Shown: positions 22,746 through 39,579 of the stretch, in pieces
Position numbering within the stretch: the first letter of the stretch is position 1
Layout of the letters: every line of letters starts with the position of its first letter
From: Pseudomonadota bacterium
GTDB lineage: Bacteria > Bdellovibrionota_G > JALEGL01 > DATDPG01
DNA length: 64,000 bases
Reading direction: 5' to 3'
NCBI GenBank assembly: GCA_043809315.1
Contig: JAZDDX010000026.1
Coordinates: forward strand, 10,792 to 74,791
Made by a program: the position numbers and the translations under genes
Notes under the pieces: model-generated
What the model saw: only the letters and a program-made list of their open reading frames with translations
Told to the model about the DNA's origin: nothing
Database searches by the model: none

Positions 22746-23322
22746 TATTCTCGCCGGAATCGCTGTTACCGTATCGGTCTGGGGCCATGCCGTGGCTTCC
22801 GAAGGTTCCGACGCCGCCATCCAGGTCGTTCGCGGCCAAGCAACCGGTTGCGCCGGGTGTTATTTCTTCTCCTGGTCGATCGACGATCCGCTGATCCGCA
22901 AATATGATCTCGCGTTCGTCTCCACCCTCGACCGTGTTCCCTCCCCGGTTTGGGCGGTCGCACTTCCGAAAGGAGGGGATCCGATCCTCCTCGATGCCCT
23001 CCATCCGACCGGATGGAACCGGTTGATCGTCGTGGAACGTCCGTCCCTCAAGACCCACGACGACTTCGAGACGTACGCAAAAGGATTCGCCCGTTTGGCG
23101 GCCGGGAACTCCTCCTTCCTCTCCCAGCTTCTCCCCGCGGAACTGGCTCGGGTGAAAAAAAAGGCCGCCGGCGCAACTCTGACCTCCCTCGCGGTGGTCC
23201 GCGGAAAGGAACGGATCTCGGTCTCGTTCTACGTGCGGAGCGCCGACAGCACGATCGTCCTCTGGGATCTTCTGTTGGAACCGGACGGCGCGGTGATCAA
23301 GGCGGAGAGCCGTCGTTTTTAG
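22729..23322 (+). CDS. Hypothetical secreted protein
   Basis: 197-aa ORF with a signal-like N-terminus (ILAGIAVTVSVWGHAVA). It overlaps the previous gene by 17 nt. No recognisable domain. Confidence 0.55.
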   Translation: MPRARNILAGIAVTVSVWGHAVASEGSDAAIQVVRGQATGCAGCYFFSWSIDDPLIRKYDLAFVSTLDRVPSPVWAVALPKGGDPILLDALHPTGWNRLIVVERPSLKTHDDFETYAKGFARLAAGNSSFLSQLLPAELARVKKKAAGATLTSLAVVRGKERISVSFYVRSADSTIVLWDLLLEPDGAVIKAESRRF

Positions 23323-25747
23323 TTTTTCGTCTCCGGAACCACCCCACCCCAGCCGCAACCAGGGCCACCACGAACACCAACCCGCTGACGGCAGCCGCCC
23401 CATGTTCCACCCACGTCCGCCGGAACGTGAGCGTCGTCTCCCGCCGGTCGGCGAAGATCAGCTGATAGCAGGGGGTCGTGAAAAGGACCGGCGCTACGCC
23501 GGAGAACCACCTCGGGAAATAGCTCTGGTGAACCACGACCGGAACCGGCCGCTCGGGGTTGCGATCGAGCGTGACGCGCGTTTCGTTCCTTCCGATCTCG
23601 ACCGACCGAACCTCCGTATCTCCCGCCACCGGGATCCGTGCTTTTGTGACCGCATCCAGAATTCGTCCCATGGAGATCCGGTACTGATTCCGGAGCCGCG
23701 CAAACGTCTCCGCGAGCGGCCTCGAGCCCCCCCCCTCCGCTTCGTTCCGAGCACGCAACGTCCGTTCAGTATCGGGGGAACGATACGGACGAGCGAGAAC
23801 GATCACGCGCGTTGGGTCCCCTCGTTTCACCACGCAGGCAACCAGGGGATCCCCTTCGTTCAAGAGAAGCACCGGTTTCGTCCGGCTCCACCGGGCCAGA
23901 CGATCGCAGGCCGATTCGAGGTTCCGGTACCGATAGGCCGTCACGAGAACCCCGCCGAACGGTTCCGCATCGAACGTGCCGTCGATCCGGGATTCGGGGG
24001 CGAATACCAGGGGGGGATCGGAACGGTTCGTCAGAAACGTGAATTCGGCGAGGGAGAGAAAGTCGTACCCGCCGAACGATGCCCTCCGCTTCGGTTCCCA
24101 ATCGGCATAGACGAGCACCGGCTGAAACTCCGGGATGTGGCCATAAGGAGAGATCGCCGCTTGGTCTTCGAATACGGTCCATCTCTGTGTCGCGGCCACC
24201 TTCCGGTATCCCTTCGCCTTCCCCAACGCCTCGACCACGCTCCGTTTGTGAACGAAGATCCTCTTGAGGTTCAGGAGCCGGTTTCGTTTCCGTTGTTCCG
24301 GCCACGGCTGGTTCAAGAAATCTGGATCCGCCGCCAACTGAGAGTCGACCCCGAAGATCGACGGACGCGATTCGGAGTAAACGTTCCGCAACGGGTCGGC
24401 GAAGAACGCGGAGATCGACGCTTCCCGGTAGACCGTCGCGATCCCGTACCCCCCCTCGTTCCCGAGCAAGCCGTTCAGATACCAGGCCTCGTCGTAGAGT
24501 CCGTAATCGTCTTTCGTGTAATCCACCAACTCCACGGTGAACCGCCCTTCTGCCGGGCGATTCCCAAGCGGGAGCAGCTCGGAATAGTCCGCCGGGTCGA
24601 CGCGGGCGATTCGGACCGGCGGGTAGAACTCGTCCGGCTCTTGGGAGTACGGGTAGGCGAGAAACAACGCGAGAAGAAGGGCGAGAATCGAAAACCGGAG
24701 ATGCCGCGTCTTCGGAAGCGAAAGAAGGGTCGAGATCCCGAAAGCCAGGAGGGGGATCATCAGAAAGAACGCCGTGATCACGACCCGGTGAGATTGGAAC
24801 GGCGTCCCGGCGAAGACGATCGATGCCGTCGGCACGAGGAGAAGTGCGGCTGCGGCACCCCCTCCCGTCGCCAGCGCGAACGTCTGCCGCCGCCGAAACG
24901 CAAGGAAGATCGAGATCGCCCCGAGCACAATCCAGGTCAGATCCTCGAGACGGAATTCGGTTAAGAACGAGACGGGAAGCGGCTTGGTCGCGACCCAGGC
25001 GTACGTGTCGAGCATCGGGACATACCAGAACGCCGAGAGGGCGAGGCTCACGACACCGACCGCGAGATACGGCCGGAAACTCCGTTGGGTGACACTGAAG
25101 GCGGCGAACGTCAGGAGCAACGGCAACAACGTGTTGACGTTCGCCAGGAGAACGAGAGTCAGAAGCCCCGTGGAGATCCAGCGATCCCGCCTTCGGGTCG
25201 CGGCTCCCGGAAGAAAGAAGAAGAGAAGGAGCAGGAGCCAGAGCGCCAGAAGATGGGCATAGAGACCGATCCGAAACGTCCCGATCAGCGTGAGCCCCCA
25301 TCCCGAGAGGTTGTCGGTCCGGAGGAGCTGGAAGAGCGTCAGGATTCCCGCGATCAATGCCGGCTGTCGACCTCCGAGGTGGCGCCAGCACAGAAAATAA
25401 ATGAGCGTCGGGAGCGTGAACGACAGGAAGAGCCCGAGGAGTTTGATGTCGGTCGATACTGAAAACGGGAGGAGATGGTCGAGCGCCGCGACAAACCAGA
25501 AAAAGAGCGGGTGGTAAAAATTCGGGAACGGCATTCCGAGGTACCAGTGCGGGGTCCAGCCGAACACCGAAGGCCAGATCCCGCTGCTGTAATCGGTCGC
25601 CATCGCGAGATGGCTCGCGCCATCCCACCCCCCCAAAACGGGGGTCCGGATCAGATCGCGGAGGAGATCGTGCGCCAGCAGGATCAGAACCGCCCAGAGC
25701 AATCCCTGATCCAACAAAATCGCTTTCCATCGGGATCGGAGCGGCAT
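23297..25747 (-). CDS. Large polytopic membrane protein, GT-C-like (COG5617 / PTPS-related membrane protein type)
   Basis: Track ORF 23297..25948 trimmed to ATG 25747 (MPLRSRWKAILLDQGLLWAVLILL). More than 12 hydrophobic spans are followed by a ~400-aa soluble C-terminal region and a final TM span. The N-terminal GGWDGASHLAMATDYSSGIWPSVFGWTPHWYLGMPFPNFYHPLFFW resembles that family from memory only. Confidence 0.6.
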   Translation of the reverse strand: MPLRSRWKAILLDQGLLWAVLILLAHDLLRDLIRTPVLGGWDGASHLAMATDYSSGIWPSVFGWTPHWYLGMPFPNFYHPLFFWFVAALDHLLPFSVSTDIKLLGLFLSFTLPTLIYFLCWRHLGGRQPALIAGILTLFQLLRTDNLSGWGLTLIGTFRIGLYAHLLALWLLLLLFFFLPGAATRRRDRWISTGLLTLVLLANVNTLLPLLLTFAAFSVTQRSFRPYLAVGVVSLALSAFWYVPMLDTYAWVATKPLPVSFLTEFRLEDLTWIVLGAISIFLAFRRRQTFALATGGGAAAALLLVPTASIVFAGTPFQSHRVVITAFFLMIPLLAFGISTLLSLPKTRHLRFSILALLLALFLAYPYSQEPDEFYPPVRIARVDPADYSELLPLGNRPAEGRFTVELVDYTKDDYGLYDEAWYLNGLLGNEGGYGIATVYREASISAFFADPLRNVYSESRPSIFGVDSQLAADPDFLNQPWPEQRKRNRLLNLKRIFVHKRSVVEALGKAKGYRKVAATQRWTVFEDQAAISPYGHIPEFQPVLVYADWEPKRRASFGGYDFLSLAEFTFLTNRSDPPLVFAPESRIDGTFDAEPFGGVLVTAYRYRNLESACDRLARWSRTKPVLLLNEGDPLVACVVKRGDPTRVIVLARPYRSPDTERTLRARNEAEGGGSRPLAETFARLRNQYRISMGRILDAVTKARIPVAGDTEVRSVEIGRNETRVTLDRNPERPVPVVVHQSYFPRWFSGVAPVLFTTPCYQLIFADRRETTLTFRRTWVEHGAAAVSGLVFVVALVAAGVGWFRRRKTKNDGSPP

Positions 25748-25822: not shown

Positions 25823-27049
25823 TTGGCAACCTTCGCGCCGCTTCGGAACCGGAACATCCGCCGATATCTCGTGAGCCAGGGGATTTCCCTGACCGGGACC
25901 TGGATGCAGAACACGGCCGCCGCCTGGTTGGTCTGGGAGCTGAGCCACTCGGCGACCGCCCTAGGGCTCCTGGCATTTCTCGGATTGACGCCGTTTCTCA
26001 TTCTCGGCCCCTGGATGGGGGTCTGGGCCGACCGGGTCGACCGGCGGCGCCTTCTTCTCGCGACTCAAACGGCGTCGATGTCGCTCGCGTTTCTCCTGGC
26101 GATCCTCGTCGGGACCGGGGAGGTCCGCCTCTGGCATGTCTACCTGCTCGCGTTTCTGTTCGGGTCGATCGCCACTCTCGACCTCCCGGGCCATCAGGCG
26201 TTCTTGAACGACCTCTCGGATGCCGGAGAGGTCGGCCGGACGTTCGTCGTCGAGAAAATCATCTACCAACTGAGCCGCCTGGTCGGTCCTCCGATTGCGG
26301 GGCTGTTGATCTCGACGGTCGGGACGGCCACCGTCTTCTGGCTAAACGGATTGAGCTTCGTGGCGGTTCTTTGGGCGCTCCGCCGGATCGAGGTCCGCCC
26401 CTCCCCTTCCCGCCGGGCCAAGACCTCGTTGGCTGAGCTGTTGGAAGGGGTTCGCTTCCTCGGAGCCCACCGAAAGATTCAGTACCTTTTCCTCTTCTCG
26501 CTCCTCGTCGCGTTTTTCGGGTTTTCGAGTCAGCAGATGCTGGCGGCCTATGCTTCCCAGATCCTGCACGAGGGGCCCCGCGCGCTCGGTTTCCTGATGG
26601 GGGCCTCCGGTCTCGGGGCTCTCGCCGGGTCGTTATGGATCGCTCCCCGCGCCCATCGCGCCCGCCGCATCGGCGTCGTTCTGTGCGTCGCCTGTTGCTG
26701 GATCGGGATCTCGCTCCTGGGACTCGCCGGCACGCACTCTCTCCCTCTTGCGATGGGGGCGATGGCGGCCGCCACGCTCGCCATGCCAGTCGTGATGGTG
26801 ACCTCCGCCGGCATGGTTCAGTTGCTGAGCGAGTCCGGGATGCGCGCGCGGATGGCGAGCCTCTGGATGACGTTGACGTATGGCCTCCAACCCTGCGCGA
26901 CATTCCTGGTCGGGTGGCATGCCAACGCCGCCGGCGTCGGTTTTGCGATCGGCATGAACGGGGCGCTGATCGCGGCCGCCTCCCTCTCACTCCTGGCCTT
27001 GCCGGATCTGCGAAAATGGATCAACCTTGACGCCGAGGTACCCCAATGA
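25823..27049 (+). CDS. MFS transporter
   Basis: Track ORF 25475..27049 trimmed to TTG 25823; GTG 25784 is an alternative start. The N-terminus ATFAPLRNRNIRRYLVSQGISLTGTWMQ is typical of the MFS_3/EntS-like N-terminal region. It has 12 hydrophobic spans. Confidence 0.8.
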   Translation: MATFAPLRNRNIRRYLVSQGISLTGTWMQNTAAAWLVWELSHSATALGLLAFLGLTPFLILGPWMGVWADRVDRRRLLLATQTASMSLAFLLAILVGTGEVRLWHVYLLAFLFGSIATLDLPGHQAFLNDLSDAGEVGRTFVVEKIIYQLSRLVGPPIAGLLISTVGTATVFWLNGLSFVAVLWALRRIEVRPSPSRRAKTSLAELLEGVRFLGAHRKIQYLFLFSLLVAFFGFSSQQMLAAYASQILHEGPRALGFLMGASGLGALAGSLWIAPRAHRARRIGVVLCVACCWIGISLLGLAGTHSLPLAMGAMAAATLAMPVVMVTSAGMVQLLSESGMRARMASLWMTLTYGLQPCATFLVGWHANAAGVGFAIGMNGALIAAASLSLLALPDLRKWINLDAEVPQ

Positions 27050-27720
27050 ACCGCCAACTTCTTTCGATTGCATGGATCGGAATCGCCCTCACGTCCCCTT
27101 TCCTCGCCGTCGCCGGGACTGTTGCTCCGAAGGAGGCCGGAAGCTTCCAGGGGCAAACCGTCACGGTGGCGGGGCGGGTCCTCTACGCATTCCAGTCGAA
27201 CCGCGGCACAATGCTTTTGTTCGATCCGAATCTCAAAAAAGGGTTTTTCGTGCTGATTCCGAAGCCTGACTACGCCAAATTTTCCCCGGACGTAGCGACC
27301 TTTTATTCCGGAAAGGGGGTTCAGGTCACCGGGATGGTCGAGGGGTATCAGGGGAGACCGACGATCGTCCTTCACGACCCCTCCAAGATTCGAGTCGTCT
27401 CGGAAGCAGGACTTGTCTCCGTGACCGGAATCCCGACGATCTCCGCCACTGAAGCTTCCAAACACTCCGGCGAACTGGTAACCGTCCAAGGCTCCGTGTC
27501 CACCGCCCGGAAGTGGCGAGATGTTTGCGTCCTTACGTTCCGATCGGAACGCGATCGCCCGTTCAGCGCGGTGATCTTCGCCTCAAGCTTTTCGAAATTC
27601 CCGAAGTCCCCGGACAAGGTGTATCAGGGCAAAAACCTGGCCGTCACCGGCGTCGTCGTGGAGTACAAGGGGGCGCCCCAAATCGTCGTGACCGATCCCA
27701 GTCAGATCGAATTTAGGTGA
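27046..27720 (+). CDS. Secreted protein with two tandem OB-fold (BOF/tRNA_anti-like) repeats
   Basis: 224 aa with a signal peptide (LLSIAWIGIALTSPFLAVAG). It is an internal duplication: GQTVTVAGRV...KGVQVTGMVEGYQGRPTIVLHDPSKI versus GELVTVQGSV...KNLAVTGVVVEYKGAPQIVVTDPSQI. ATGA overlap with the MFS stop. Confidence 0.65.
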   Translation: MNRQLLSIAWIGIALTSPFLAVAGTVAPKEAGSFQGQTVTVAGRVLYAFQSNRGTMLLFDPNLKKGFFVLIPKPDYAKFSPDVATFYSGKGVQVTGMVEGYQGRPTIVLHDPSKIRVVSEAGLVSVTGIPTISATEASKHSGELVTVQGSVSTARKWRDVCVLTFRSERDRPFSAVIFASSFSKFPKSPDKVYQGKNLAVTGVVVEYKGAPQIVVTDPSQIEFR

Positions 27721-29168
27721 TGCGGAAGAACATCGTCGCTCTTTCCGCGGTCGCTTTCCTTCTCCTGATGGCGATCTTGATTCTTGTGGACCCTCATGCA
27801 GCCGCGGTTTTGCTGCGCGAGTCGAAAGCCCGCGTGGATGTCTTCCTCGTCTACGGATCGACGCCGGCGAAAGTGTTCTACCTCCCCCTGCTCCTGGTGA
27901 TTTCCCTTCCGTTGATGAATTACGGGCGCTCTCTCTGGCGCACGCAAAGGGCGCGCATCCGTGCCATCGCGATGTTGGGGGGCCTCGCCGTCTCCCTCTG
28001 GTATTTCGGATTTCACGAGGTGGGAAACACGTTTCGGAAATACCGTGTCGACCCCTACCCCCAGGGAAACCATTTCCAGTTTTGCGACAAGGGGAATTTC
28101 TATACCGAATACATCAGCTACGAGCACGTTCATTCGCTGAAAGAGGTCGCAAGCAAGGTCGTCTTCGGACCTCGGAATTATCATACCGGCGAAGATTATT
28201 GGAAACTCCACGATTTTCCGGTCAAGGTTCCCGTAATCCTTCTTTGCCTGATGCTGGTGGTCTACTTTTTGGGTCTGCCGGCCTATCGGGACGTCTCCGC
28301 CGGCGCCGCCGCCGCTCACGTGACGGGCTTCCATATTCTCTTTCTCTCGTGTTTCGACGGAGGCGTCTTTGTCGGATCGACCGGGCTCGCTTTGCTCCTT
28401 TACCCGCTGCTCGAGGACGGAAAACGCTGGTATCTCTCTCGCGAATTCAAGAGCATCTATCTCTTTCTCGGATGTCGGGCCGCCGCGCTCCTTCTTTATT
28501 TCCTGTTCCTCCGCCTGGACGGCTACCCGATGGAGAAGTGGGACGGATGGGGATTGGTTTCAATGTACTTCCTCGACAATACGATCCGCCATGCCGTCGT
28601 TCTTCTGTTTTTCAACATGATCACGGGGTTCTCGCGCTCTCGTTGGTTTTCCCTCGCCTGTCTGGCCGGACTCTCTTGTCTTTACTACTCCCAGCGCAGC
28701 GCCTGGTGGCTGGGGGAAGACTATGCTGCCACGGTCCGGAAGGGAGAGCAGGTCACGCTTTTGCTCTATTCGGATCAGCCTTCATCGGTCGGGGAAGTCC
28801 TGGTTCGGGCCAAGAATATTTCTTTGGTCCGGTTTCAGAACGATCAAGAGACCTCCGCGTGGGAGCTCTGTTGGAACGCGCTTCGCCAAACGGAAGGCTT
28901 GAGCTACCGGAGTCTCATGGTGACTGTCTATTGCCGGCCGCTGATGTCGCTGCCGCACTCGCACAGTCAGTATTTTCAGTCTCTCAAGCAAGGATCGTGT
29001 GGGTTCACCTGCAATCCGAAGCTTCGGACCCTCTTTCCGGTTAAAACCGATCCGAAGGAAAATTGGTATCTGGAGGGTCTTCGGGGGGTCCGAGGTGAGG
29101 GAGTAATCTTCTGTCTGACCGACTCGGTCCTAGAGGTATCTCGGCCACGGAGAACCGGTGACCCCTGA
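27720..29168 (+). CDS. Uncharacterised polytopic membrane protein, paralogue A
   Basis: 482 aa. The ATG at 27720 shares its A with the upstream TGA. It has about 9 hydrophobic spans, a conserved ~75-aa loop (FQFCDKGNFYTEYISYEHVHSLKEVASK...GPRNYHTGEDYWKLHDFP) and a ~140-aa Cys-containing C-terminal domain. It is collinear with 30040..31473. Confidence 0.75.
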   Translation: MRKNIVALSAVAFLLLMAILILVDPHAAAVLLRESKARVDVFLVYGSTPAKVFYLPLLLVISLPLMNYGRSLWRTQRARIRAIAMLGGLAVSLWYFGFHEVGNTFRKYRVDPYPQGNHFQFCDKGNFYTEYISYEHVHSLKEVASKVVFGPRNYHTGEDYWKLHDFPVKVPVILLCLMLVVYFLGLPAYRDVSAGAAAAHVTGFHILFLSCFDGGVFVGSTGLALLLYPLLEDGKRWYLSREFKSIYLFLGCRAAALLLYFLFLRLDGYPMEKWDGWGLVSMYFLDNTIRHAVVLLFFNMITGFSRSRWFSLACLAGLSCLYYSQRSAWWLGEDYAATVRKGEQVTLLLYSDQPSSVGEVLVRAKNISLVRFQNDQETSAWELCWNALRQTEGLSYRSLMVTVYCRPLMSLPHSHSQYFQSLKQGSCGFTCNPKLRTLFPVKTDPKENWYLEGLRGVRGEGVIFCLTDSVLEVSRPRRTGDP

Positions 29169-30033
29169 GAAGAATCTTCTCGTCCGCCTGGTCGTTTCGG
29201 CGATCGGCATTCCGGTCGTGTTCGGGGCGTTGTTTCAACCCTCCCCCACCTGGACCTGGCTCCTCGTGATGGCGGTTCTCCTCGCGGCCTTCGAAGAGTA
29301 CGGGCGGATCTTGGGGCTTCGCGCTCTCGAACGATGGGTCAACACGGGAGTCGGTGTCGTGCTCTGGGCGGTCGTCTACTGGCGACCCGATGCGCTCTTG
29401 CCCTGTCTGTTCTTTTCCACGATCGTGATCTTTTCCTCTTTCTTCGCGATCTCGGGACGCGATCCGGCCCGTGCGTTCCGCCGGACCACGGAGTCTGTCT
29501 TCGCCCTGGTCTACCTCGGCCTCCTCGTCTGCATCCCGCTCTTGCGGCGAGACGGGGGGGACAACGGAACGCTCTGGGTGATTCTGCTCGTAACGACCGT
29601 CTGGTTCGAGGACACGCTGGTCTATTTCGCCTGGCTGTTTCTGGGGGGTCATCGGGATTACCCCGATCTCGGTCCGTCGTTCCGCGGACGGCTTGCGCGG
29701 ATCTATCGGAGCCTTCCGGTTCCCTCGGAGATCAGCCGGAACAAATCCTGGGGGGCGTTCCCCGTGCAGTTCGCCGGCTGTCTGATCGCGAACCTCCTCG
29801 GGAAACTGTTTTATCTTCCGACGCTCACATGGGGTCAGGTGTTGGCTCTCTCGTTTCTCGCGGCGCTTCTCGGAAAAGTCGGCGATCTGTGTGAATCGAT
29901 GCTGAAACGGGCCTTCGGGGCGGGAACCTCCGGTCCCTTCCTGCCGGGGCACGGGGGGATTCTGGATCGGATCGACGCTCTTCTCTTCGTCGCCCCGCTC
30001 TATTATTTCTTCGTTCGGTGGTGGCTTCCGTAG
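29158..30033 (+). CDS. CTP-transferase-1 (CdsA / phosphatidate cytidylyltransferase) family protein, divergent
   Basis: 291 aa with a GTG start overlapping paralogue A by 11 nt. It has 8 or so TM spans. The C-terminal signature is SMLKRAFGAGTSGPFLPGHGGILDRIDALLF, and ISRNKSWGA stands in place of the usual SP-KKTWEG. The family K-D dyad is replaced by G-T, and there is an extra ~30-aa insertion. Confidence 0.75.
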   Translation: MTPEKNLLVRLVVSAIGIPVVFGALFQPSPTWTWLLVMAVLLAAFEEYGRILGLRALERWVNTGVGVVLWAVVYWRPDALLPCLFFSTIVIFSSFFAISGRDPARAFRRTTESVFALVYLGLLVCIPLLRRDGGDNGTLWVILLVTTVWFEDTLVYFAWLFLGGHRDYPDLGPSFRGRLARIYRSLPVPSEISRNKSWGAFPVQFAGCLIANLLGKLFYLPTLTWGQVLALSFLAALLGKVGDLCESMLKRAFGAGTSGPFLPGHGGILDRIDALLFVAPLYYFFVRWWLP

Positions 30034-30039
30034 GTCAGT

Positions 30040-31473
30040 ATGCGAAAGAACCTCGTTTCTCTTTCCTCGGTCGCTTTCCTTCTCGTCGTGGCGATTTTGA
30101 TTCTCGCGAATCCTCATGCCGCCGCGGTTTTGTTGCGGGAATGCAAGGCTCGTGTCGATGTTTTTTTCATCTTCGGGTCGACCCCTGGAAAGGTGCCGTA
30201 TCTGCCGCTGCTCCTGGCGATTTCTCTTCCGTTGATGAACTATGGTCGCCCGCTTTGGCGATCCCAAATGGCGCGCGTTCTTGCGTTCGCCACGCTGAGC
30301 GCACTCTCCGTTTCTCTCTGGTTCTCGGGGTTTCACGAAGTGGGAAACGGGCTTCGGAAACACCATGTGAACCCTTATCAGCAAGGGACGCACATCCAGT
30401 TTTGCGACGAGGGACGCTTCTATACCGAATATGTCGGGTACGAACATATTCATTCGCTGAAAGAGGTCGCCAGCAAGCTCGTCATCGGACCTCGGAATTT
30501 TCACACCGGCGAAGACTTCTGGAAACTCCACGACTTTCCGGTCGCCGTTCCGGCGCTTCTTCTCGGTTTGACACTGCTCCTTTATTTCCTGGCGTTACCC
30601 GCCTATCGGGAGATCTCGACCGGCGCCGCCGTCGCTCATGTGGTCGGTTTTTATATCCTCTTCTTCTCGTTTTTCGACGGCGGGGTGTTCGTCGGAATTC
30701 ACGGGCTTCTCCTGCTTCTCTATCCGCTGCTTCAGGACGGTACGCGCTGGTATTTCTCTCGCGAGCTCAAGAGCATTTACCTCTTTCTGGGAAGCCGGGT
30801 CGCTGCCTTGGCCCTTTATTTTCTGTTCCTGCGCTTGGACGGTTTTCCGATGGCCTCCTGGACCGGCTGGGGACTCGTTTCGTACTACTTCGTCGGACAA
30901 TCGGTTCGCCACGCCATCGTTCTCTTGTTTTTCAACGCGATCACTGGATTCTCGCGTTCCCGGTATTTTTCTCTCGTGTTTCTCGCCGGATTCTCCTCTC
31001 TTTACGTCACCCAACACGATACATGGTGGTTGGCGGACTCCTACAGCGACCCGGTCCGGAAAGGGGAACAGGTCACGCTGTTGCTCTATTCGGAACGACC
31101 GCCGCCGGGGGGAGAGATTCTCGTCCGGGCGAAAAACGTTTCATTGGTCACATTTCGGAATGAACGGGAGACCACCGTGTGGGAGCTCTGTTGGAATACG
31201 CTTCATCAAATGGAAGGGGTTGGTTACCGGAGCCTCATGGTAACTGTCTATTGCCGGCCGCTTTCGCCCATCCCCGCCTCGCACAGTCAGGTTTTCCAGG
31301 TGCTCGAGAACGGGTCGTGCGGCTTCACTTGCAGTCCAAAACTTAAGTCTCTTTATCCGATCCGATCCGGCTTGGGCGCCGACCTTCATCTGGAGGGGAT
31401 GCGCGGTGTCCGGGGTGAAGGCGTGATCTTCTGTCTGACCGATTCGACCAAAACTGTGTCGAGGCCGCGGTAA
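30040..31473 (+). CDS. Uncharacterised polytopic membrane protein, paralogue B
   Basis: 477 aa. It aligns end to end by eye with paralogue A (same motifs), and the DNA is also still alignable. Its stop abuts the stop of the convergent gene with no spacer. Confidence 0.75.
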   Translation: MRKNLVSLSSVAFLLVVAILILANPHAAAVLLRECKARVDVFFIFGSTPGKVPYLPLLLAISLPLMNYGRPLWRSQMARVLAFATLSALSVSLWFSGFHEVGNGLRKHHVNPYQQGTHIQFCDEGRFYTEYVGYEHIHSLKEVASKLVIGPRNFHTGEDFWKLHDFPVAVPALLLGLTLLLYFLALPAYREISTGAAVAHVVGFYILFFSFFDGGVFVGIHGLLLLLYPLLQDGTRWYFSRELKSIYLFLGSRVAALALYFLFLRLDGFPMASWTGWGLVSYYFVGQSVRHAIVLLFFNAITGFSRSRYFSLVFLAGFSSLYVTQHDTWWLADSYSDPVRKGEQVTLLLYSERPPPGGEILVRAKNVSLVTFRNERETTVWELCWNTLHQMEGVGYRSLMVTVYCRPLSPIPASHSQVFQVLENGSCGFTCSPKLKSLYPIRSGLGADLHLEGMRGVRGEGVIFCLTDSTKTVSRPR

Positions 31474-32892
31474 TCAGAATTCGTCCGCCTCGACGGCGAA
31501 GGTGTCGAACCCCATCGTTTTCAGGCGCGCCAGGACGGTCTCGTACCGATCGTCCGGCACGCACCCTTCGATCACCGCCCGGAACCGGAGGTCGCACGAC
31601 TCCTTTTCCCCGCATCGTTCGGTGTCGAAAGACCGGAAGATCCTCTTCGCCGCGGGCTCAAACGAGGTCGCGTGTCGCGCCAAGATCTTGACCGTTCCCT
31701 CCCGGACGAACCCCTCCTCGAACGAGCAGCGTCCCGGCTCCGGAACCGCCACCAGAAAAAACGAGGGGGGCAGGCGATACTCCTTGTGTACGTCCCGGAT
31801 GGTCGAGGCGGCCGAGAAGATTCCCCGGTACAGCGTCAACCCCCCCTCTGTTGCAAGGGGCCGGAGGGGGAGATCGGACTTCCAGGTCGTCACGAAGAAC
31901 GGCGTTCCGGCCGGGATCGGCGTCCGAAGGTACCGGAACGTCCCGCTCCAGAAGAAGTTCCAGCTCAGAGCGACCAGCAACGGGAGCGACCAGACTAGGT
32001 GCTTCCAACTCGGGCTCGCGCGCCTCAGCGCCAGAAACTCCACAGTCTGGAGAAGCACAAGAACAAACAGTACCTCGAGAAACAGCTGATGTACGAGATA
32101 CCAAGGCGCGGCGATCCCAAACAAACCGCGGAGTCCACCAATCAGTAGGATCGCCACGAGCCACCCTGGGCTCATACCCCGGGCCAAACCAATCGGCCTC
32201 ACGTTCGTAGTTCGCAAAAGCACCACGAACGTCGGGAAGAAAACAAGGAACTCCGTACAGAACGGCCCTCCGTCAAAAAGGCTTTTCACGACGGCATACC
32301 CCGCAATGATCGCCCCCGCCCAATGAGGCGAGTATTTTCGGTCCAACCACGCCTCCCGCTTGGAAACGATCGCGGCACCCGTCAGAACGACTGCCGCGAC
32401 GACGACCAGCAGCTGCACCAGAACAAGGCCCGGGGGAAGGATCGCCAGATAAGGACTGCCGGTGTCCCCCACGATCCTCGTCGGATCGACTCCGATCAGC
32501 TGCAGAAAGAGCGCCAGGGATCCCTTCCCGACATGAAGATGAACCAGGCTGTTGTCCGAGTGTTTCTTCGAATACAAGATCGTCCAGGCCCCGAACGCCG
32601 TTCCGGTCCGTTGAACGTAGATGACGTGGGCGATCAGGTTGACGAGTTGACCCGACAGAACGGCCGCCATCGCCCATCGACCGACTCCCCGTATTCTTAC
32701 ACGGAGCGGGCTTGCCAAGAGCGCGCAGAGAACCAACGCCCAGCCGAGAAACAGGTGCGCCTTGAAGAACGTCCGGCCGAAGGCGAAAAACTGCGTGAAG
32801 ATCCCCGCGAAGAACGCGACGTCGTAGGATAGAACCGATGCAATCAGTCCGGCGGCAAGGGCCACGGCGGAAACAAAGAACGGCTTTCGCAC
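31474..32892 (-). CDS. Uncharacterised polytopic membrane protein, probable distant paralogue C
   Basis: 472 aa with the same layout: multi-TM N-terminal part plus a ~140-aa soluble Cys-containing C-terminal domain. It shares an FDGG motif in a TM context (SLFDGGPF versus SCFDGGVF / SFFDGGVF). Confidence 0.7.
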   Translation of the reverse strand: MRKPFFVSAVALAAGLIASVLSYDVAFFAGIFTQFFAFGRTFFKAHLFLGWALVLCALLASPLRVRIRGVGRWAMAAVLSGQLVNLIAHVIYVQRTGTAFGAWTILYSKKHSDNSLVHLHVGKGSLALFLQLIGVDPTRIVGDTGSPYLAILPPGLVLVQLLVVVAAVVLTGAAIVSKREAWLDRKYSPHWAGAIIAGYAVVKSLFDGGPFCTEFLVFFPTFVVLLRTTNVRPIGLARGMSPGWLVAILLIGGLRGLFGIAAPWYLVHQLFLEVLFVLVLLQTVEFLALRRASPSWKHLVWSLPLLVALSWNFFWSGTFRYLRTPIPAGTPFFVTTWKSDLPLRPLATEGGLTLYRGIFSAASTIRDVHKEYRLPPSFFLVAVPEPGRCSFEEGFVREGTVKILARHATSFEPAAKRIFRSFDTERCGEKESCDLRFRAVIEGCVPDDRYETVLARLKTMGFDTFAVEADEF

Positions 32893-32902: not shown

Positions 32903-33505
32903 TTATTCGCAAGAATTGGATCCGGTCGGTGCTCCCGGAGCGTTGGCCCAATAATACGGGACCAAACCGACCAACCCCGGTTTCACGATCTGGACGAACC
33001 CGCCGATCGTGACTTCGACCTCCCGAGCTTTCGAACCGCTCGCGAGCTCCGTCGCACTCAGGACGATCTCGACCCCGATGGATGTGCATGTGGCGCCGGA
33101 GCAAAAGTTCGGCCGGCCGAACTGGTCGAACCAGACGGTCCGCGGGTACCACGAACTGCAGGCCGAGAACGAAATGCCGTTCCGAAGGTTCACGGTCTCG
33201 CCGATCCGCTCCTGCCCGCTGCCGCCACAACCGACGGCCGACGTGTGTCCGGTTCCCGCCTTATCTAGGTATGTCGTAATCGTGTTGGTCGTGCTGTCCA
33301 GCAGAACGCACACCCACAAACTGCGTGTCGTCGCCTCCGTCTGCGCCTTTTGGAACGCGGCGGACAGGGCCTGTGCGGAAGTGATCAGTCGTTGTTTGGG
33401 GAGGTATCCGCGGATCGACACGATCCCGATCGAGAGAAGTGTGGCCAGGATCGTGAGCGTAACCATCAGCTCGACCAGAGTTATGGCTCTCGACCGACGA
33501 ATCAT
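32903..33505 (-). CDS. Type II secretion / type IV pilus minor pseudopilin (GspH/FimT-like)
   Basis: 200 aa. The N-terminus MIRRSRA|ITLVELMVTLTILATLLSIG is a prepilin-type leader with Glu at +5 and Ala rather than Gly at -1. It is followed by a Cys-rich globular domain. Confidence 0.75.
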   Translation of the reverse strand: MIRRSRAITLVELMVTLTILATLLSIGIVSIRGYLPKQRLITSAQALSAAFQKAQTEATTRSLWVCVLLDSTTNTITTYLDKAGTGHTSAVGCGGSGQERIGETVNLRNGISFSACSSWYPRTVWFDQFGRPNFCSGATCTSIGVEIVLSATELASGSKAREVEVTIGGFVQIVKPGLVGLVPYYWANAPGAPTGSNSCE

Positions 33506-33508
33506 TTT

Positions 33509-33862
33509 CTAAAGGACGGCGATCCTTTTGATCAGAGACAGGATCATCTCTTTGTCGATCTCATTCAGATTCACGAACCGGATCCCCATCCCGGGGTTGT
33601 AGTTGTCTTTCTTCTGGGGACGCAGGGGATTCGCCCACGCAACCTCCCCCAGGACTTCGATCTTCTTCTCCGTATCGGGGGAGGTGAACTGGAGTTCGAT
33701 CATCGTTCCGGGGTCCATCGGTTTGTCGGTCTCGATGAAGATCCCGTGTTCGCTGATGTTGGTCGCGTTCTCATACAGGAACGTCCCTTCCGACTTCCAG
33801 TCGACTTTGAATTTGGTCGGCACGCGGCGTGATAAGCGTTTCTCTTTGCTGTCCTCGGACAT
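33509..33862 (-). CDS. Stand-alone PilZ-domain protein
   Basis: 117 aa. Motifs: RLSRRVP (RxxxR region) and NISEHG (NxSxxG). The stop lies 3 nt before the pseudopilin start. Confidence 0.85.
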   Translation of the reverse strand: MSEDSKEKRLSRRVPTKFKVDWKSEGTFLYENATNISEHGIFIETDKPMDPGTMIELQFTSPDTEKKIEVLGEVAWANPLRPQKKDNYNPGMGIRFVNLNEIDKEMILSLIKRIAVL

Positions 33863-33914: not shown

Positions 33915-34502
33915 TTACGGCCGCGCGAGGCTGGCTACCCTCTTCTGGCTTCCGAGTCGGTAGAACTCTCGCAAGCTTCGCAGGATCCCCGGGGTCGGCC
34001 CGACTCCACCGGCGATCGCTCCGAGCGACCGCACGAACTTTCCCCCGAGTCGTTGGGCCTCCGCATATCGCGCCTTCGCCTCCTCGGACAGTTTTCCCAG
34101 CCACGAGAACTTCCCGAAGATGCGTGCGAAGAGATCCGATTCGCCATCGAAGTAGGCTGAGGCGAGGAGGAACTTGTCGATCTCCCCTTGGAGTTCGAGA
34201 TCCAGGAGACTCACCGGTTTTTCGTTTGCCGCGCGCCAGAGGAGATAGACGAAGTGGCTTGTTTCCTCCGCGGCGCTCAGGAAGTCGGCCAGGTTCTTCG
34301 GTTCGAGCCCCTCCGGGGCGAGGTGAACCGCCAGGAAGACCTCCCCATCCGCCTCCTGGATGAGGATTTGCGGTTTCGGATCAGCTCCTTCCGGCAGCCA
34401 ACTTCGGAGATCGGCGGCGGAGATCAGAAAATGTTCGATCGGGGGTTGCGCTCCAAGACGGTAGATCCGCTCGAGCAGGCGCTGCAACTCCCGGACGATC
34501 AA
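33915..34502 (-). CDS. Hypothetical protein (195 aa)
   Basis: Track ORF 33915..34589 trimmed to TTG 34502, which overlaps the upstream TGA (TTGA). No recognisable domain. Confidence 0.55.
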   Translation of the reverse strand: MIVRELQRLLERIYRLGAQPPIEHFLISAADLRSWLPEGADPKPQILIQEADGEVFLAVHLAPEGLEPKNLADFLSAAEETSHFVYLLWRAANEKPVSLLDLELQGEIDKFLLASAYFDGESDLFARIFGKFSWLGKLSEEAKARYAEAQRLGGKFVRSLGAIAGGVGPTPGILRSLREFYRLGSQKRVASLARP

Positions 34503-35086
34503 TGAAGCGGCCCCTTCTTCCAATCGACCGGCAGGATCCCCTTTTCCAGAAGAAGTTCGCGGAGCCGATCGTTCCGGGTTGCGAGCCATCGTTCGTAGAC
34601 GCGGAGGAGATCCGCGTCCGACGTGAGTCCGGACGAGGCGCTGATCTCCGCGAAGAGATCGACCAGCTTCGCGAACTTCCCCGAGAGTTCTTCGAACATC
34701 TCCGCGACCCCTCGGTCCGGCTTCTTCTCCTCGGCCAGGGAGGAAACGAAGTCGTACGCTAGAACCCCCATGGCAATGAAGTAATCGACGTCGACCGCCA
34801 TTCGGCTCAGGGCATCTCCGAAAAACCCCGACACGTAGAGGGACCGGTCCCCGACCTGCTTCATCAGAGTGAAGCGTTCACCGATGCTCGGCGTTCCCAT
34901 CGCCCGTCCGTACGTCAAGGCGAGCGGTTCGTCGGGCGGGTTTTTCCGGGTATCGACCGCCTCCGAAAGGAGGTTCACGAGATAAAATTCCGACATCTCC
35001 GTGAGTTGGATCTGCCTCTTCCGGCGGACCCGCTGGACACTCTCACGGAAAAACTCCATTAAGTTACGGGCGGACTCTAGTTTCAT
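34499..35086 (-). CDS. Hypothetical protein (195 aa)
   Basis: Track ORF with an ATG start. Predicted helical and cytosolic. No recognisable domain. Confidence 0.6.
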   Translation of the reverse strand: MKLESARNLMEFFRESVQRVRRKRQIQLTEMSEFYLVNLLSEAVDTRKNPPDEPLALTYGRAMGTPSIGERFTLMKQVGDRSLYVSGFFGDALSRMAVDVDYFIAMGVLAYDFVSSLAEEKKPDRGVAEMFEELSGKFAKLVDLFAEISASSGLTSDADLLRVYERWLATRNDRLRELLLEKGILPVDWKKGPLH

Positions 35087-35173: not shown

Positions 35174-37018
35174 TTAGGTCCGCCGGATTCCGTACTTTTT
35201 GATCTTGGAAACGAGCGTACGGCGGGGAATCTTAAGGATATCGGCGGCTTTGGTCTGGTTCCACTCCGCCCGTTTCAGGGCCGCGACGATCAGGTCCCGC
35301 TCGTAGGCGGAGATCACCTCCTTCATGTCGCCGACGGCGGTCGCCGCCACCGTCACCGCTGTTCCGGCCATACCCAGACCGGCGGAGGGGGGGTCGACGT
35401 AGTCGAATGTATCGGAGGTCAGCTTGCTCGTCAGCCCCTGTTTGTAGATCGTGTCCCCCTCGGAGATCACGACCGCTCGCTCGATCGCGTTCTTGAGCTC
35501 CCGGATGTTCCCGGGCCATGGGTACCGAGCCAGAATCTCCATCGCGTCGGGGGAGATCTGTTTGGTCGGGAAGCCGTTCTCTTTGCAGATCTGTTCGATG
35601 AAGGCGGTCGCCAGGTACGGGATCTCGTCGCGCCGTTCCCGTAACGGAGGGACGGTGATCGTCGCGGCATTCAGACGGTAGAAGAGATCTTCACGGAAGA
35701 TCCCCTTCGCCACCAGATCCTCGAGCTTTCGGTTCGTGGCGGCGACGATCCGTACGTCGGTATCGAGCTCTCGGTTGGAACCGACCCGCATGATCTTCTT
35801 CGATTGAAGAACCCGAAGGAGTTTTGCTTGCGTCTTCGCCGGCATCTCCCCCACTTCGTCCAGAAAGATCGTCCCCCCCTTGGCCGACTCGAAGAGGCCG
35901 ATTTTAAGGTGGTCCGCTCCGGTGAAAGATCCTTTTTCGTGCCCGAACAGTTCGCTCTCGAGAAGGGTCTCGGTAAGCGCCGCGCAGTTCACGCAGACGA
36001 GCGATTTCTGCACCCGGTCGCTGTTCGCGTGGATCGCTTCCGCCACCACCTCCTTGCCGACCCCCGTCTCCCCCTGGATCAGCACCGTGATCGTCGATTT
36101 CGCGATCCGCTCCGCCAACTCGAAGAGTTGCGCCATCTTCTCGCTTTTCACGATCACCAGGTGGGACGAGACCTTGATCTTTCGAACCTCGTCTTTGATC
36201 TCGGCGACACGGTCGGCCTCTTTCGTGCGAGCGACTTTGAGCGCTTGGCGAGATTTTTCGATCAGAAGATCGGGGGTCCGCCCGTCGTCCGGGAAGGTCG
36301 CGATCCCGATCGAGATGAACGCTTGTTTGTCGGTGATCCGCTCCGACGCGATCCGCTGTGCGAGGCGCATCGCCTCTTTCTTGTCCGTCTCCGGAAGGAG
36401 GAGTTCGAGTTCGAACTTTCCATAGTGGGCAAGAAGGTCCATCGTCCGGATCATCTTCCGAAGGTATTCGACGACCCTCGGATATCTTCGCTGCAGAATC
36501 TCATCACGGTCCGCCACGTTCTTTCCGCTGGGATCGATCCCCACCATCAGAACGGAGAGCGGGCGTTTGTATCGCGCCGCCCGGTCGAGTTCCTCGGCGA
36601 CCCGGCTTTCGAAGTACCCGTGACTCCGGATTCCGAGACGATTCCCCTCGACCAGGTTGTGCGTCGAGAAACGGAAGCAGGTGACGCCGATCTGAACCTC
36701 GTCTCCGTCGTTCAGAACGTGATCCCCCGCCAACTTGTCACCGTTCACGAACGTGCCGTTTGTGCTGCTGAGATCGGAAACCTTCGTCTCACCCAACTTG
36801 GTGATAAACTGCGCATGTTTTCTCGAGACCTGGCTGTCATTGAGAAAAACATCGGCACTTCCCTGCCGCCCGACGACCATGGTTCCCTCGTTCAACGTAT
36901 AGACGGTTCCTGAACCGGGGCCCGAAATCGCCACGATATAGGCCTTCTCCGTGGTTATTTGGTCCTCGCGCTCGGAAGAGGTCTCGCGAAACTTGGGGAG
37001 CGTTTTGTCCTGTTCCAT
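35174..37018 (-). CDS. Sigma54-dependent transcriptional activator with N-terminal FHA domain and degenerate GGDEF domain
   Basis: The track ORF starts at 37081. I prefer ATG 37018 (AGGTGA just upstream; the preceding codons are AT-rich). Domains in order: FHA (VVGRQGSADVFLNDSQVSRKHAQF...SSTNGTFVNG); GGDEF-like (LSVLMVGID...RTMDLLAHYGKFELELLLPET...SIGIATFP); AAA+ (GETGVGKE, ESELFGHEKGSFTGA); Fis-type HTH (AADILKIPRRTLVSKIKKYGI). Confidence 0.9.
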   Translation of the reverse strand: MEQDKTLPKFRETSSEREDQITTEKAYIVAISGPGSGTVYTLNEGTMVVGRQGSADVFLNDSQVSRKHAQFITKLGETKVSDLSSTNGTFVNGDKLAGDHVLNDGDEVQIGVTCFRFSTHNLVEGNRLGIRSHGYFESRVAEELDRAARYKRPLSVLMVGIDPSGKNVADRDEILQRRYPRVVEYLRKMIRTMDLLAHYGKFELELLLPETDKKEAMRLAQRIASERITDKQAFISIGIATFPDDGRTPDLLIEKSRQALKVARTKEADRVAEIKDEVRKIKVSSHLVIVKSEKMAQLFELAERIAKSTITVLIQGETGVGKEVVAEAIHANSDRVQKSLVCVNCAALTETLLESELFGHEKGSFTGADHLKIGLFESAKGGTIFLDEVGEMPAKTQAKLLRVLQSKKIMRVGSNRELDTDVRIVAATNRKLEDLVAKGIFREDLFYRLNAATITVPPLRERRDEIPYLATAFIEQICKENGFPTKQISPDAMEILARYPWPGNIRELKNAIERAVVISEGDTIYKQGLTSKLTSDTFDYVDPPSAGLGMAGTAVTVAATAVGDMKEVISAYERDLIVAALKRAEWNQTKAADILKIPRRTLVSKIKKYGIRRT

Positions 37019-37141
37019 TTTCACCTGCCTAAAAAAAGTAAGGAAAGGATAGACGATTTGGCGATATTTCGCCATGCGCAAGGCGTCAGGTGCTCGTTTT
37101 AGGGTCGCGCCCCCCCCCTTTTTCGGCTATTTTTCACCTCC

Positions 37142-38016: not shown

Positions 38017-39579
38017 GTGGATAAGGTCTTAGGAATCGATCTCGGTACGTCAACCTCGTGCGTGGCGGTCATGGTCGACGGGAAACCGGTCGTCATCCCC
38101 GACAAGGACGGCGTCACGATCCAGCCCTCGATCGTGAACTTCCGACCGGATGGCCGGATCTTGGTCGGCAAAGAGGCCAAGCCGTACGTCATCCAGGACG
38201 CGGAAAACACCGTGACCGCGGCGAAACGACTCATCGGACGGAAGTTTTTCTCCGCCGAGGTGAAAAAGGCGAAGGCGCTGATGCCGTATGAGATCATCGA
38301 GGGGGAGAACCAGTCGGCTCAGATCCGGATCCAGCAGAAGAGTTTCACTCTGCAAGAAATCTCCGCGATGATCCTCAAGAAAATGAAGGCGATCGCCGAG
38401 GAGTATTTCGGCGAACCGATCTCGCGCGCGGTCGTCACCGTCCCGGCCTACTTCAACGACAACCAGCGCGCAGCCACGAAAGACGCGGGGAAGATCGCTG
38501 GGCTCGACGTCCTCCGGATCATCAATGAACCGACCGCCGCCGCGTTGGCATACGGATACGGGAAAGCGATCCGGCAGCGGGTCGCCGTTTACGATCTCGG
38601 CGGCGGGACGTTCGATGTCTCGGTTCTCGAACTCGGAGACGACGTCTTCGAGGTGATTTCGACCTCCGGCGACACCTATCTCGGGGGGGAGGATTTCGAC
38701 GACCGGATCATCGATTGGGCGTCCGCGAAGTTTCTGGCAAGCCACAATTTCGACCTCCGGAAAGACCGGATGACGCTCCAACAACTCAAAGATGCGGCCG
38801 AGCGCGGAAAGGTCGAGCTGACCGTCAAAGAGGTCACCAAGATATTCATCCCCGCCGTTACCGCCGATACGACCGGGTTCGTCGACCTCGACTTCGATCT
38901 TCCCCGCGCGGAGTTCGAAGGGCTGATCACCGATCTAATCCAGCGGACGTTCAAGGTCTGCGACGAGGCGATGCAGATGGCGCGCCTCACGCCGAGCGAC
39001 ATCGGCGGCGTGATTCTGGTGGGCGGGCCGACCCGATCCCCCAGTGTCCGGAACGCCGTCATGAACTACTTCCAGCGCGAACCTCTAGCCGACATCCATC
39101 CGGACGAGGTGGTGGCGACCGGTGCCGCGATTCAAGGGGGAGCTTTGACCGGCGAATCGAAGGACGTCGTCCTGGTCGACCTCACTCCGCTCTCACTCGG
39201 AATCGAGATCCGAGGAGGGTTGGTGGAACGGATCGTCGAACTCAACACCCCCGTTCCGGCCGATCACACCAAGATCTTCACCACGACCCACAACAATCAG
39301 GAGTCGGTCAAGATCCGCGTCTTCCAGGGGGAGAAACGGAAAGCCGCCGAGAACGAACTTCTCGGGGAGTTCACCCTTTCCGGCCTCTCGAAGGCGCAGG
39401 CCGGGGACGTGAGTGTCGCCGTTCAGTTCGAGGTCGACACGAACGGGATCCTAAACGTCACCGCGAAAGATGTCGAAACCGGGAAATCGCAGTCGGTTCG
39501 TTTGCAGTCGTCCGGTCGCCTCTCCGAGGAGAGACTGAAGGAACTGCAGGGATCGACCGACGCCGTCGTGACCAAGTAA
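38017..39579 (+). CDS. Atypical Hsp70-family chaperone lacking the C-terminal helical lid
   Basis: 520 aa with a GTG start; AAGGAG lies 7 nt upstream. Motifs: GIDLGTSTSCVAV, VTVPAYFNDNQRAATKDAG, DLGGGTFDVS. A substrate-binding beta domain is present (LTPLSLGIE...). The protein ends about 40 aa after it, with no lid and no EEVD. Confidence 0.9.
   Translation: MDKVLGIDLGTSTSCVAVMVDGKPVVIPDKDGVTIQPSIVNFRPDGRILVGKEAKPYVIQDAENTVTAAKRLIGRKFFSAEVKKAKALMPYEIIEGENQSAQIRIQQKSFTLQEISAMILKKMKAIAEEYFGEPISRAVVTVPAYFNDNQRAATKDAGKIAGLDVLRIINEPTAAALAYGYGKAIRQRVAVYDLGGGTFDVSVLELGDDVFEVISTSGDTYLGGEDFDDRIIDWASAKFLASHNFDLRKDRMTLQQLKDAAERGKVELTVKEVTKIFIPAVTADTTGFVDLDFDLPRAEFEGLITDLIQRTFKVCDEAMQMARLTPSDIGGVILVGGPTRSPSVRNAVMNYFQREPLADIHPDEVVATGAAIQGGALTGESKDVVLVDLTPLSLGIEIRGGLVERIVELNTPVPADHTKIFTTTHNNQESVKIRVFQGEKRKAAENELLGEFTLSGLSKAQAGDVSVAVQFEVDTNGILNVTAKDVETGKSQSVRLQSSGRLSEERLKELQGSTDAVVTK

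Follow-up and report, generated by a model that had tools for sequence, protein, structure and literature searches.

What might a bacterium do with three copies of an unrecognised polytopic membrane protein grouped around a gene of the CdsA family of cytidine triphosphate (CTP):lipid cytidylyltransferases? This question is raised by a locus in a stretch of 64,000 nucleotides (positions 10,792 to 74,791 of contig JAZDDX010000026.1, assembly GCA_043809315.1), which we refer to as the window and whose numbering is used for all coordinates. The locus was singled out by an earlier reading of the sequence without database searches (hereafter the original prediction), and we followed it up computationally. 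We call the three paralogues A, B and C and their family the 9TM family, for nine transmembrane (TM) helices; residue numbers in this family are those of C. The other contigs are labeled L001 to L008 and ERZ1426844, and numbers of the form P00xx denote family or collection proteins. Our results suggest that the locus pairs a cytoplasmic CTP-dependent lipid-activating enzyme with periplasm-facing, probably metal-dependent enzymes of lipid head groups, a reading to which we assign a probability of about 0.45. The genes concerned are the following.

25823..27049, plus strand: major facilitator superfamily (MFS) transporter, DHA3/EntS-like (MFS_3), the first gene of the operon (PF05977, E 4.7e-43; PF07690, E 4.5e-28; TIGR00900, E 1.8e-48).
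27046..27720, plus strand: secreted protein with weak OB-fold matches (PF12869, E 1.9e-6; PF01336, E 9.5e-6).
27720..29168, plus strand: paralogue A of the 9TM family, divergent A/B subtype, with the motifs EH-V-H-SL-K, H-T-G and F-DGG.
29158..30033, plus strand: CdsA-family CTP:lipid cytidylyltransferase-like protein, matching PF01148 and the structures of TmCdsA.
30040..31473, plus strand: paralogue B of the 9TM family, 70% identical to A.
31474..32892, minus strand: paralogue C, of the mainstream 9TM type, with S112, H118-x-H120-x-x-K123, D143-x-G145, D207-G-G209 and four Cys in its C-terminal domain.

The open reading frames (ORFs) and coordinates of the original prediction were confirmed by our ORF map, and every junction that it described is exact. 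The stop codon of the MFS gene overlaps the start of the OB gene through the ATGA at 27046, the OB gene and A meet at the TGATG at 27718-27722, the GTG start of the CdsA-like gene at 29158 overlaps A, whose stop lies at 29166-68, by 11 nt, and a 6-nt gap precedes the ATG of B at 30040. The stop codon of B (TAA, 31471-73) directly abuts that of the convergent, minus-strand gene C (TCA, 31474-76).

Are A, B and C members of a single family? The proteins A and B align over their full length without gaps and are identical at 336 of 477 residues (70%). Their DNA is 73.4% identical (78, 85 and 58% at the first, second and third codon positions, respectively), as expected of the collinear paralogues with alignable DNA that had been described. 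The synonymous divergence (dS) is about 1.0, with third positions near saturation, and the ratio of nonsynonymous to synonymous divergence (dN/dS) is 0.195 overall and about 0.2 in every segment tested. This ratio indicates purifying selection on both genes and, together with the near-saturated third positions, that A and B are old, functional duplicates. No similarity of C to A or B was found by BLASTP. A hidden Markov model (HMM) derived from 63 full-length sequences of the C family matches A with an E-value of 1e-12 and B with an E-value of 7e-10, and a comparison of A and B with the C family by hhalign gives a probability of 97.4% over 362 collinear columns. A six-frame ORF search recovers A again. 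The suspicion that C is a third, older member of the family was therefore correct, and the relationship is visible through profile methods alone. These sequence comparisons make A, B and C paralogues within one rare, previously undescribed family of predicted inner-membrane proteins, with C as the distant member.

An exhaustive search of 1.84 billion representative proteins with C using phmmer yielded 88 proteins, i.e., C and 87 relatives, mostly 460-500 amino acids long and matched over their full length. Across 75 aligned members, H120, K123, G208 and G209 are conserved in all 75 sequences, H118, D207 and G145 in 74, and D143 in 71. Besides these three motifs (HxHxxK, DxG and DGG), S112, G39 and K44 are near-invariant in the family, and C carries them all. 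Both His residues, the Lys, G145 and the DGG motif are kept in A and B, where the D143 column is occupied by His in both proteins. The S112 column holds a Tyr in A, while B is unaligned there, and the N-terminal Gly and Lys could be aligned in A only. As for the C-terminal domain, all four of its conserved Cys residues are present in C. In the MAFFT alignment, the Cys of the VYCR motif of A and B falls in the column of the invariant C389, and another of their Cys falls in a column that is Cys in 90% of members; the final ~80 residues of A were left unaligned by hmmalign and have a predicted local distance difference test score (pLDDT) below 50 in the model of A.

We then modeled the structure of C with AlphaFold2 (AF2) from an alignment of 33 sequences, which gave a pLDDT of 93.7 and a predicted TM-score (pTM) of 0.92. 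The original prediction had counted about nine hydrophobic spans; the model indeed contains nine TM helices, to which a short interfacial helix after TM1 has to be added. The loop of ~55 residues between TM3 and TM4 contains a beta-hairpin followed by the HxHxxK and DxG motifs, the DGG motif lies between TM5 and TM6, and a beta-rich C-terminal domain of ~140 residues follows the TM helices. For A, the model is less confident (pLDDT 67, pTM 0.70), but up to about residue 400 its helices and hairpins follow one another as they do in C. In averages over 33 members, Lys and Arg residues number 1.4-2.8 in the N-terminus and in each of the loops TM2-3, TM4-5, TM6-7 and TM8-9, compared with 0.06 and 0.33 in the short loops TM5-6 and TM7-8, respectively. 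The number of Cys in the C-terminal domain is even in 94% of members (mean 3.8), which suggests that this domain is probably disulfide-bonded. Taken together, the positive-inside pattern and the parity of the Cys most likely place the N-terminus in the cytoplasm and the HxHxxK, DxG and DGG motifs, together with the C-terminal domain, in the periplasm. Two His, two Asp (one His and one Asp in A and B) and two Lys would thus be displayed at the outer surface of the membrane, where they resemble a metal-plus-phosphate or catalytic site.

We searched for characterized relatives of these proteins. No model of Pfam, NCBIfam or PADLOC matches A, B or C and, apart from the fusions to a phosphodiesterase-type domain described below, Pfam returned no match even at E <=1 for these three proteins or for 33 further members scanned. 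A search of PDB sequences with a profile made from C and its relatives gave no match. Foldseek comparisons of the model of C yielded a best E-value of 0.24 and query TM-scores of at most 0.17 against the PDB, and nothing against the BFVD viral library. The proteins are thus as unrecognised as they first appeared; among the families that had been raised as possible matches (Wzy, WaaL, GT-C and exosortase), neither Pfam nor Foldseek against the PDB gives a confident match to A, B or C. Two scans of 185,579 GTDB species representatives found no relative with the patterns tried, a scan of JGI metagenomes found a single distant relative locus (L002), and tblastn of C against plasmids found no match. 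Our literature search retrieved the precedent of YnbB and the glycolipid MPIase, discussed below, and no description of the 9TM family.

The indexing of the family also hides it. The word index saturates for TM proteins: it found C itself alone and missed all 87 relatives. Moreover, A (P0089) and B (P0091) belong to 90%-identity clusters represented by unrelated proteins of 41 and 40 amino acids (P0090 and P0092, respectively), a database artefact that puts them out of reach of any search based on representatives; word-indexed searches accordingly returned nothing for them. The family is therefore nearly invisible to searches of this kind, with two of its members hidden behind wrong cluster representatives. 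Three candidate assignments were considered and rejected: the HKD motif of PLD enzymes, whose spacing is wrong; a BacA-like 'SRS' motif of A and B, which lacks conservation in the family and sits in a cytoplasmic loop; and an anti-phage defence system, for which PADLOC gave no match. Indeed, none of the seven proteins of the locus (0/7) matched any PADLOC model.

What, then, is the CdsA-like protein? Its assignment to the CdsA (CTP-transferase-1) family stands, with a match to PF01148 at an E-value of 1.5e-40 (140 bits against a cut-off of 24) and PDB matches to TmCdsA (4Q2G, E 2.8e-19; 4Q2E, E 1.4e-18). Its sequence identity is 29% with E. coli CdsA and 26% with YnbB. In TmCdsA, the residues with a demonstrated role are the D219-D249 dyad that binds Mg/K, E222, D246, D144, K167 and K226 (PMC4083444). 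The equivalents of the residues named there (D152, K196, D243, E246, K250, D270 and D273) are all present, which suggests that the CdsA-like protein is probably active. However, the family signature S-x-x-K-R-x4-K-D-x-G…HGG-x-x-D-R-x-D is incomplete, its K-D being replaced by G-T. The original prediction had reported this replacement, which we confirm, and implied an altered chemistry, for which it is weaker evidence than implied because the change touches none of the catalytic residues established for TmCdsA.

A 21-aa cytoplasmic insertion (DLGPSFRGRLARIYRSLPVPS) lies ahead of the active-site Lys of the NKSW motif; it had been noticed before, with an estimated length of ~30 aa that alignment to E. 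coli CdsA and YnbB reduces to 21. The only close homologue with a readable sequence, encoded on L001, is 52.6% identical and carries the same insertion. The K-D is retained in this homologue, as it is in E. coli CdsA, YnbB and TmCdsA. This indicates that the insertion is the mark of a subtype and that the G-T is a local peculiarity; from the sequences compared, the replacement is specific to the source genome. Against the NCBIfam model of the CdsA equivalog (NF008635), the protein reaches 63 bits, far short of the cut-off of 385. The uppS/dxr/rseP context known from E. coli is absent at the locus, where the neighbours are the 9TM, MFS and OB genes, and no second cdsA lies within the 64-kb window. 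By these sequence measures, the protein is a member of the CTP_transf_1 superfamily and not a standard CdsA equivalog.

The proposed link between the 9TM genes and this non-canonical CdsA-family gene can be retained, since the pairing was found on two independent metagenome contigs and a CarS-like gene takes its place on a third. We read about ten contexts of family members, of which the following bear on function.

L001: three C-type paralogues in tandem (the first cut by the end of the contig) and, after them, a convergent CdsA-like gene that has the insertion.
ERZ1426844 contig: a tandem pair of paralogues (P0004 and P0005), followed by a convergent CTP_transf_1 gene of 297 aa.
L006: two paralogues in tandem, immediately preceded by a CarS-like gene of the same clan (PF01864, E 3e-13).
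L003 and L007: next to the family gene and divergent from it, an LPG_synthase_TM gene (MprF-flippase type) that is homologous between the two contigs.
P0023, P0025 and P0040: each fused at its C-terminus to an NPP-type alkaline-phosphatase domain (PF01663) in which the P-T-F-S Thr nucleophile is intact and a GDHG motif is present.
L008: a PMT_2 (GT-C) gene divergent from P0008.
Contig of P0013: an inositol-monophosphatase-family gene downstream.
L002: nothing informative.

In addition, genes for Wzy_C, a sulfotransferase and an acyl carrier protein (ACP) lie near P0007 on L003, and a GH57 gene and a homologue of a large membrane protein of the window lie near P0023. A PDB sequence search with the NPP domain of P0023 returned nothing useful. 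A gene of the CTP-transferase clan normally occurs about once per genome; its presence beside the family in 4 of about ten independent contexts, with two families of the clan involved, is therefore far beyond chance. Tandem paralogy is a habit of the family. The third gene of L001, nearest to the CdsA-like gene, is 47% identical to its positional counterpart P0005, and neighbours within a locus are only 40-42% identical, from which it follows that one or more duplications are ancient and have persisted. On L006 (1385..2027), the bacterial CarS-like gene (162 aa) has a response-regulator gene and a 57-aa TM ORF in front of it, the latter overlapping. A frameshift could explain this small ORF, or it may encode one or more N-terminal helices that have become separated from the CarS-like protein.

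The large membrane protein is encoded next to the operon in the window:

23297..25747, minus strand: large polytopic membrane protein, divergent from the operon across a 75-bp spacer.

Counted from Met68 of an 883-aa ORF, this protein has 816 aa, with ~11 TM helices, an extracytoplasmic part of ~400 aa and a C-terminal TM helix, and it has no match in Pfam, NCBIfam, PDB sequences or PADLOC. Its homologue on L004 (11337..13808, minus strand, 823 aa) matches N-terminally with an E-value of 2e-11, together with a collinear C-terminal match, and shares the first-loop motif L(G/P)GWD..(S/P)H. This homologue lies two genes from a 9TM-NPP fusion. The large membrane protein may thus be a further recurrent or accessory partner, possibly a GT-C-like enzyme, with a weak linkage seen in two contexts.

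How might these proteins work together? The original prediction saw in the locus a module that modifies or exports a membrane lipid or lipid-linked carrier, an inference for which gene context and the domain fusions are the basis. On the cytoplasmic face, the CdsA-like enzyme would use CTP to activate or phosphorylate a membrane lipid. Possible products would be a liponucleotide of the cytidine diphosphate (CDP)-diacylglycerol type, a product linked to diacylglycerol pyrophosphate (DAG-PP) as in the synthesis of MPIase, or a polyprenyl phosphate. This product or a derivative would then reach the outer leaflet, with the co-operonic MFS protein as the candidate carrier here and LPG_synthase_TM proteins in other lineages. 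There, the His/His/Asp(His)/Asp site of the 9TM proteins would probably hold a divalent metal, with Lys44 and Lys123 placed for phosphate binding, and would transfer or cleave a phosphate-linked head group at the periplasmic surface of the membrane. The acceptor could be bound by the C-terminal domain and, at this locus, perhaps also by the secreted OB protein. The paralogues might form a hetero-oligomer or catalyze successive steps. A specialised role for a CdsA-type enzyme has a precedent, since CdsA and YnbB also make N-acetylglucosamine-PP-DAG (GlcNAc-PP-DAG) for the glycolipid MPIase (PMC6362211).

Several observations weigh against this pairing of a lipid-activating enzyme with periplasmic head-group enzymes. 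A CTP-transferase neighbour occurs in only 4 of about ten contexts, the others presenting a PMT_2, GH57 or inositol-monophosphatase-type gene or being uninformative, and the CdsA-like protein of the window has lost the K-D of its signature. The operon contains neither a CDP-alcohol phosphatidyltransferase nor a glycosyltransferase to consume a CDP-lipid. No relatives of the A/B subtype were found elsewhere by word-indexed, scan and soluble-part searches, of which the word-indexed kind is weak for these proteins. Finally, the predicted topology is drawn from the positive-inside rule and the parity of the Cys, and the putative metal binding of the His/Asp set only from the identity of the residues.

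Of the alternatives, the one that survives best, although we consider it unlikely, is the assembly of a glycan linked to DAG-PP or polyprenyl-PP, in which the CdsA-like protein would prime the carrier, the 9TM proteins would be periplasmic polymerases or ligases analogous to Wzy and WaaL, and the large membrane protein would be GT-C-like. The synthesis of GlcNAc-PP-DAG by CdsA and YnbB (PMC6362211) is consistent with such a pathway, as is the predicted periplasmic location of the conserved site. So are several of the neighbourhoods described above: the Wzy_C, sulfotransferase and ACP genes near P0007, the PMT_2 GT-C gene divergent from P0008, and the GH57 gene accompanied by a homologue of the large membrane protein near P0023. 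The presence of several paralogues is also typical of sets of polymerases and ligases. However, no cytoplasmic glycosyltransferase, sugar-nucleotide gene or Wzx-type flippase was found in the operon of the window or on the CdsA-linked contigs. The 9TM proteins show no structural likeness in the PDB to WaaL, Wzy-like, SEDS or GT-C proteins, and the family lacks the invariant Arg of WaaL and Wzy.

It is rather improbable that the 9TM proteins are not enzymes but subunits of a transporter or scaffold for lipids or amphiphiles (for instance, a flippase for the product of the CdsA-like protein) whose polar residues bind a substrate or an ion. Their polytopic architecture would suit such a role, tandem paralogues could form hetero-oligomers, and the family is associated with the putative lipid translocators MFS and LPG_synthase_TM. 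However, a separate flippase-like protein is usually encoded alongside. Moreover, it is not along the TM helices that the invariant residues gather but in loops outside the membrane, all on one side. An invariant HxH accompanied by two Asp and a Lys is a combination more characteristic of catalytic or metal sites, and no transporter fold was matched in the PDB.

We find it quite improbable that the locus recycles lipid phosphates, with the 9TM proteins as periplasmic lipid-(pyro)phosphate phosphatases or phosphodiesterases and the CdsA- or CarS-like partner as a CTP-dependent kinase that re-phosphorylates the lipid alcohol in the cytoplasm. The clan of PF01148 includes the CTP-dependent dolichol and phytol kinases; the partner in this role can be of the CdsA-like or the CarS-like kind; the His/Asp/Lys site is predicted to be periplasmic; and a phosphodiesterase-type alkaline-phosphatase domain is found fused to some members. 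Yet the CdsA-like protein has the complete di-metal and accessory residues of CdsA, and its signature is nearest to that of true CdsA (29% identity to E. coli CdsA). The family also presents no PAP2 or BacA motif and no structural match to either, and recycling leaves the retention of two or three paralogues unexplained. Finally, it is very improbable that 29158..30033 is the housekeeping cdsA and that A, B and C are unrelated envelope proteins flanking it by chance: all the experimentally defined catalytic residues are present and the window holds no other cdsA, but the pairing recurs on two independent contigs (with the insertion shared on L001) and with a CarS-like gene on a third, the CdsA equivalog model is missed by a wide gap (63 bits against 385), the usual uppS-cdsA-rseP/dxr context is absent, and the CdsA-like gene is translationally coupled to A by the 11-nt overlap and nearly abuts B.

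Returning to the pairing of a CTP-dependent lipid-activating enzyme with periplasmic head-group enzymes, a more ambitious version can be proposed tentatively, which we regard as possible and somewhat doubtful. The 9TM proteins would constitute a new class of membrane enzymes, with a new fold and a periplasmic His-His-Lys-Asp-Asp metal site, which together with a dedicated liponucleotide synthase of the CdsA/CarS type would make or remodel a novel envelope lipid or lipid-anchored polymer. For instance, a CDP-activated or DAG-pyrophosphate lipid would be used outside the cytoplasm to donate a phosphatidyl unit or a head group. To our knowledge, no enzyme has been described that performs such a donation. 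The folds of envelope-lipid enzymes are thought to be largely mapped and include the CDP-alcohol transferases, PAP2, PLD, the alkaline-phosphatase-type transferases, GT-C, MBOAT and AT3. Here, a confidently modeled polytopic protein has neither a solved structural relative nor an entry in the domain libraries, and it carries a strictly conserved polar set that is predicted to lie on the outer face. If the genetic link reflects a pathway, this would be a second specialised use of a CdsA-type enzyme, like that of YnbB in MPIase synthesis, and a new periplasmic chemistry of lipid head groups. The candidate module is small (the CdsA-like gene and two or three paralogues) and is therefore directly testable.

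The remaining genes of the locus were also examined. The TTG start of the MFS gene at 25823 agrees with the position where its Pfam match begins. The OB protein, described in the original prediction as a tandem-OB protein, has an N-terminal hydrophobic segment with a signal peptide (…PFLAVA/G). Searches of PDB sequences with the OB and MFS proteins returned nothing useful, and a simple scan for promoters and terminators gave only background levels. On the minus strand, C is the last gene of a string that includes two further genes upstream of it.

32903..33505, minus strand: pseudopilin, prepilin-type (GspH/FimT-like; PF07963, E 2.8e-5; TIGR01708, E 2.4e-5), 10 nt upstream of C.
33509..33862, minus strand: PilZ-domain protein of the TIGR02266 family (PF07238, E 1.9e-14; TIGR02266, E 5e-24), upstream of the pseudopilin.

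These two neighbours were not seen beside family members in the other contexts that we read, and the linkage between the pseudopilin and C is probably local only. Further upstream of the PilZ gene lie two unknown ORFs (33915..34589 and 34499..35086) and a minus-strand gene for a regulator with FHA, GGDEF, sigma54-activator and helix-turn-helix (HTH) parts (35174..37081).

The window as a whole presents a chromosomal context of ~60% GC with genes for multihaem cytochromes, ClpB, Hsp70 and PBP1A. A protein with RHS repeats, DUF6531 and a YD shell, of the toxin-delivery type, is encoded at 41123..42856 (plus strand), downstream of the Hsp70 and TPR-DnaJ genes (38017..41157). At 47309..51845 (minus strand), a DUF4340 protein (703 aa) and an ABC-2 permease resemble GldG/GldF-like or similar envelope export sets; the gene calls of this region need care because its frames overlap heavily with alternative ORFs. 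At 52008..56341 (plus strand), the gene for a cyclic nucleotide monophosphate (cNMP)-binding protein carrying a 4Fe-4S dicluster precedes that for a multihaem cytochrome of 673 aa with c7/c3 repeats, which points to a diderm of the Desulfobacterota/Myxococcota type that is anaerobic or respires metals. Apart from the divergent genes for tRNA-Phe(GAA) and tRNA-Lys(CTT) at 2923..3185, no RNA gene was detected in the window.

How does the locus compare with known systems? CdsA and YnbB are the closest counterparts of the CdsA-like protein, in which both the D-D metal dyad and the D, K and E residues that assist it are conserved. As with YnbB, its gene lies in a specialised operon outside the uppS-cdsA-rseP context. 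It differs from both by the 21-aa insertion, otherwise found only in the 9TM-linked homologue, by the G-T in place of K-D and by its low score against the equivalog model. The partners also differ, being YnbA, YnbC and YnbD for YnbB and the 9TM proteins here. The MprF-type flippase domain (LPG_synthase_TM, PF03706; YbhN) neighbours the family in two lineages and may fill the lipid-moving role proposed for the MFS protein. It shares no homology with A, B or C, and the window contains no gene with a PF03706 domain.

WaaL, Wzy and GT-C enzymes such as ArnT and PglB are likewise polytopic proteins of the inner membrane with polar residues in periplasmic loops, and some contexts of the family contain Wzy_C or PMT_2 genes. 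In contrast to these enzymes, with which they have no Pfam or Foldseek similarity, the 9TM proteins have neither an invariant Arg nor a DxD/ExD motif in the first loop. With EptA, LtaS, OpgB/MdoB and the glycosylphosphatidylinositol ethanolamine-phosphate (GPI-EtNP) transferases, the analogy is functional only: these enzymes combine a polytopic domain with a periplasmic domain and handle phosphate-linked head groups on the outer face of the membrane. Their alkaline-phosphatase domain is absent from A, B and C, and PF01663 is found only in P0023, P0025 and P0040. The PDB entries of the EptA/LtaS type match neither the 9TM membrane domain with its HxHxxK, DxG and DGG motifs nor the beta-domain. 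By analogy, it is nevertheless to such periplasm-facing enzymes of lipid head groups that A, B and C appear closest in their way of working.

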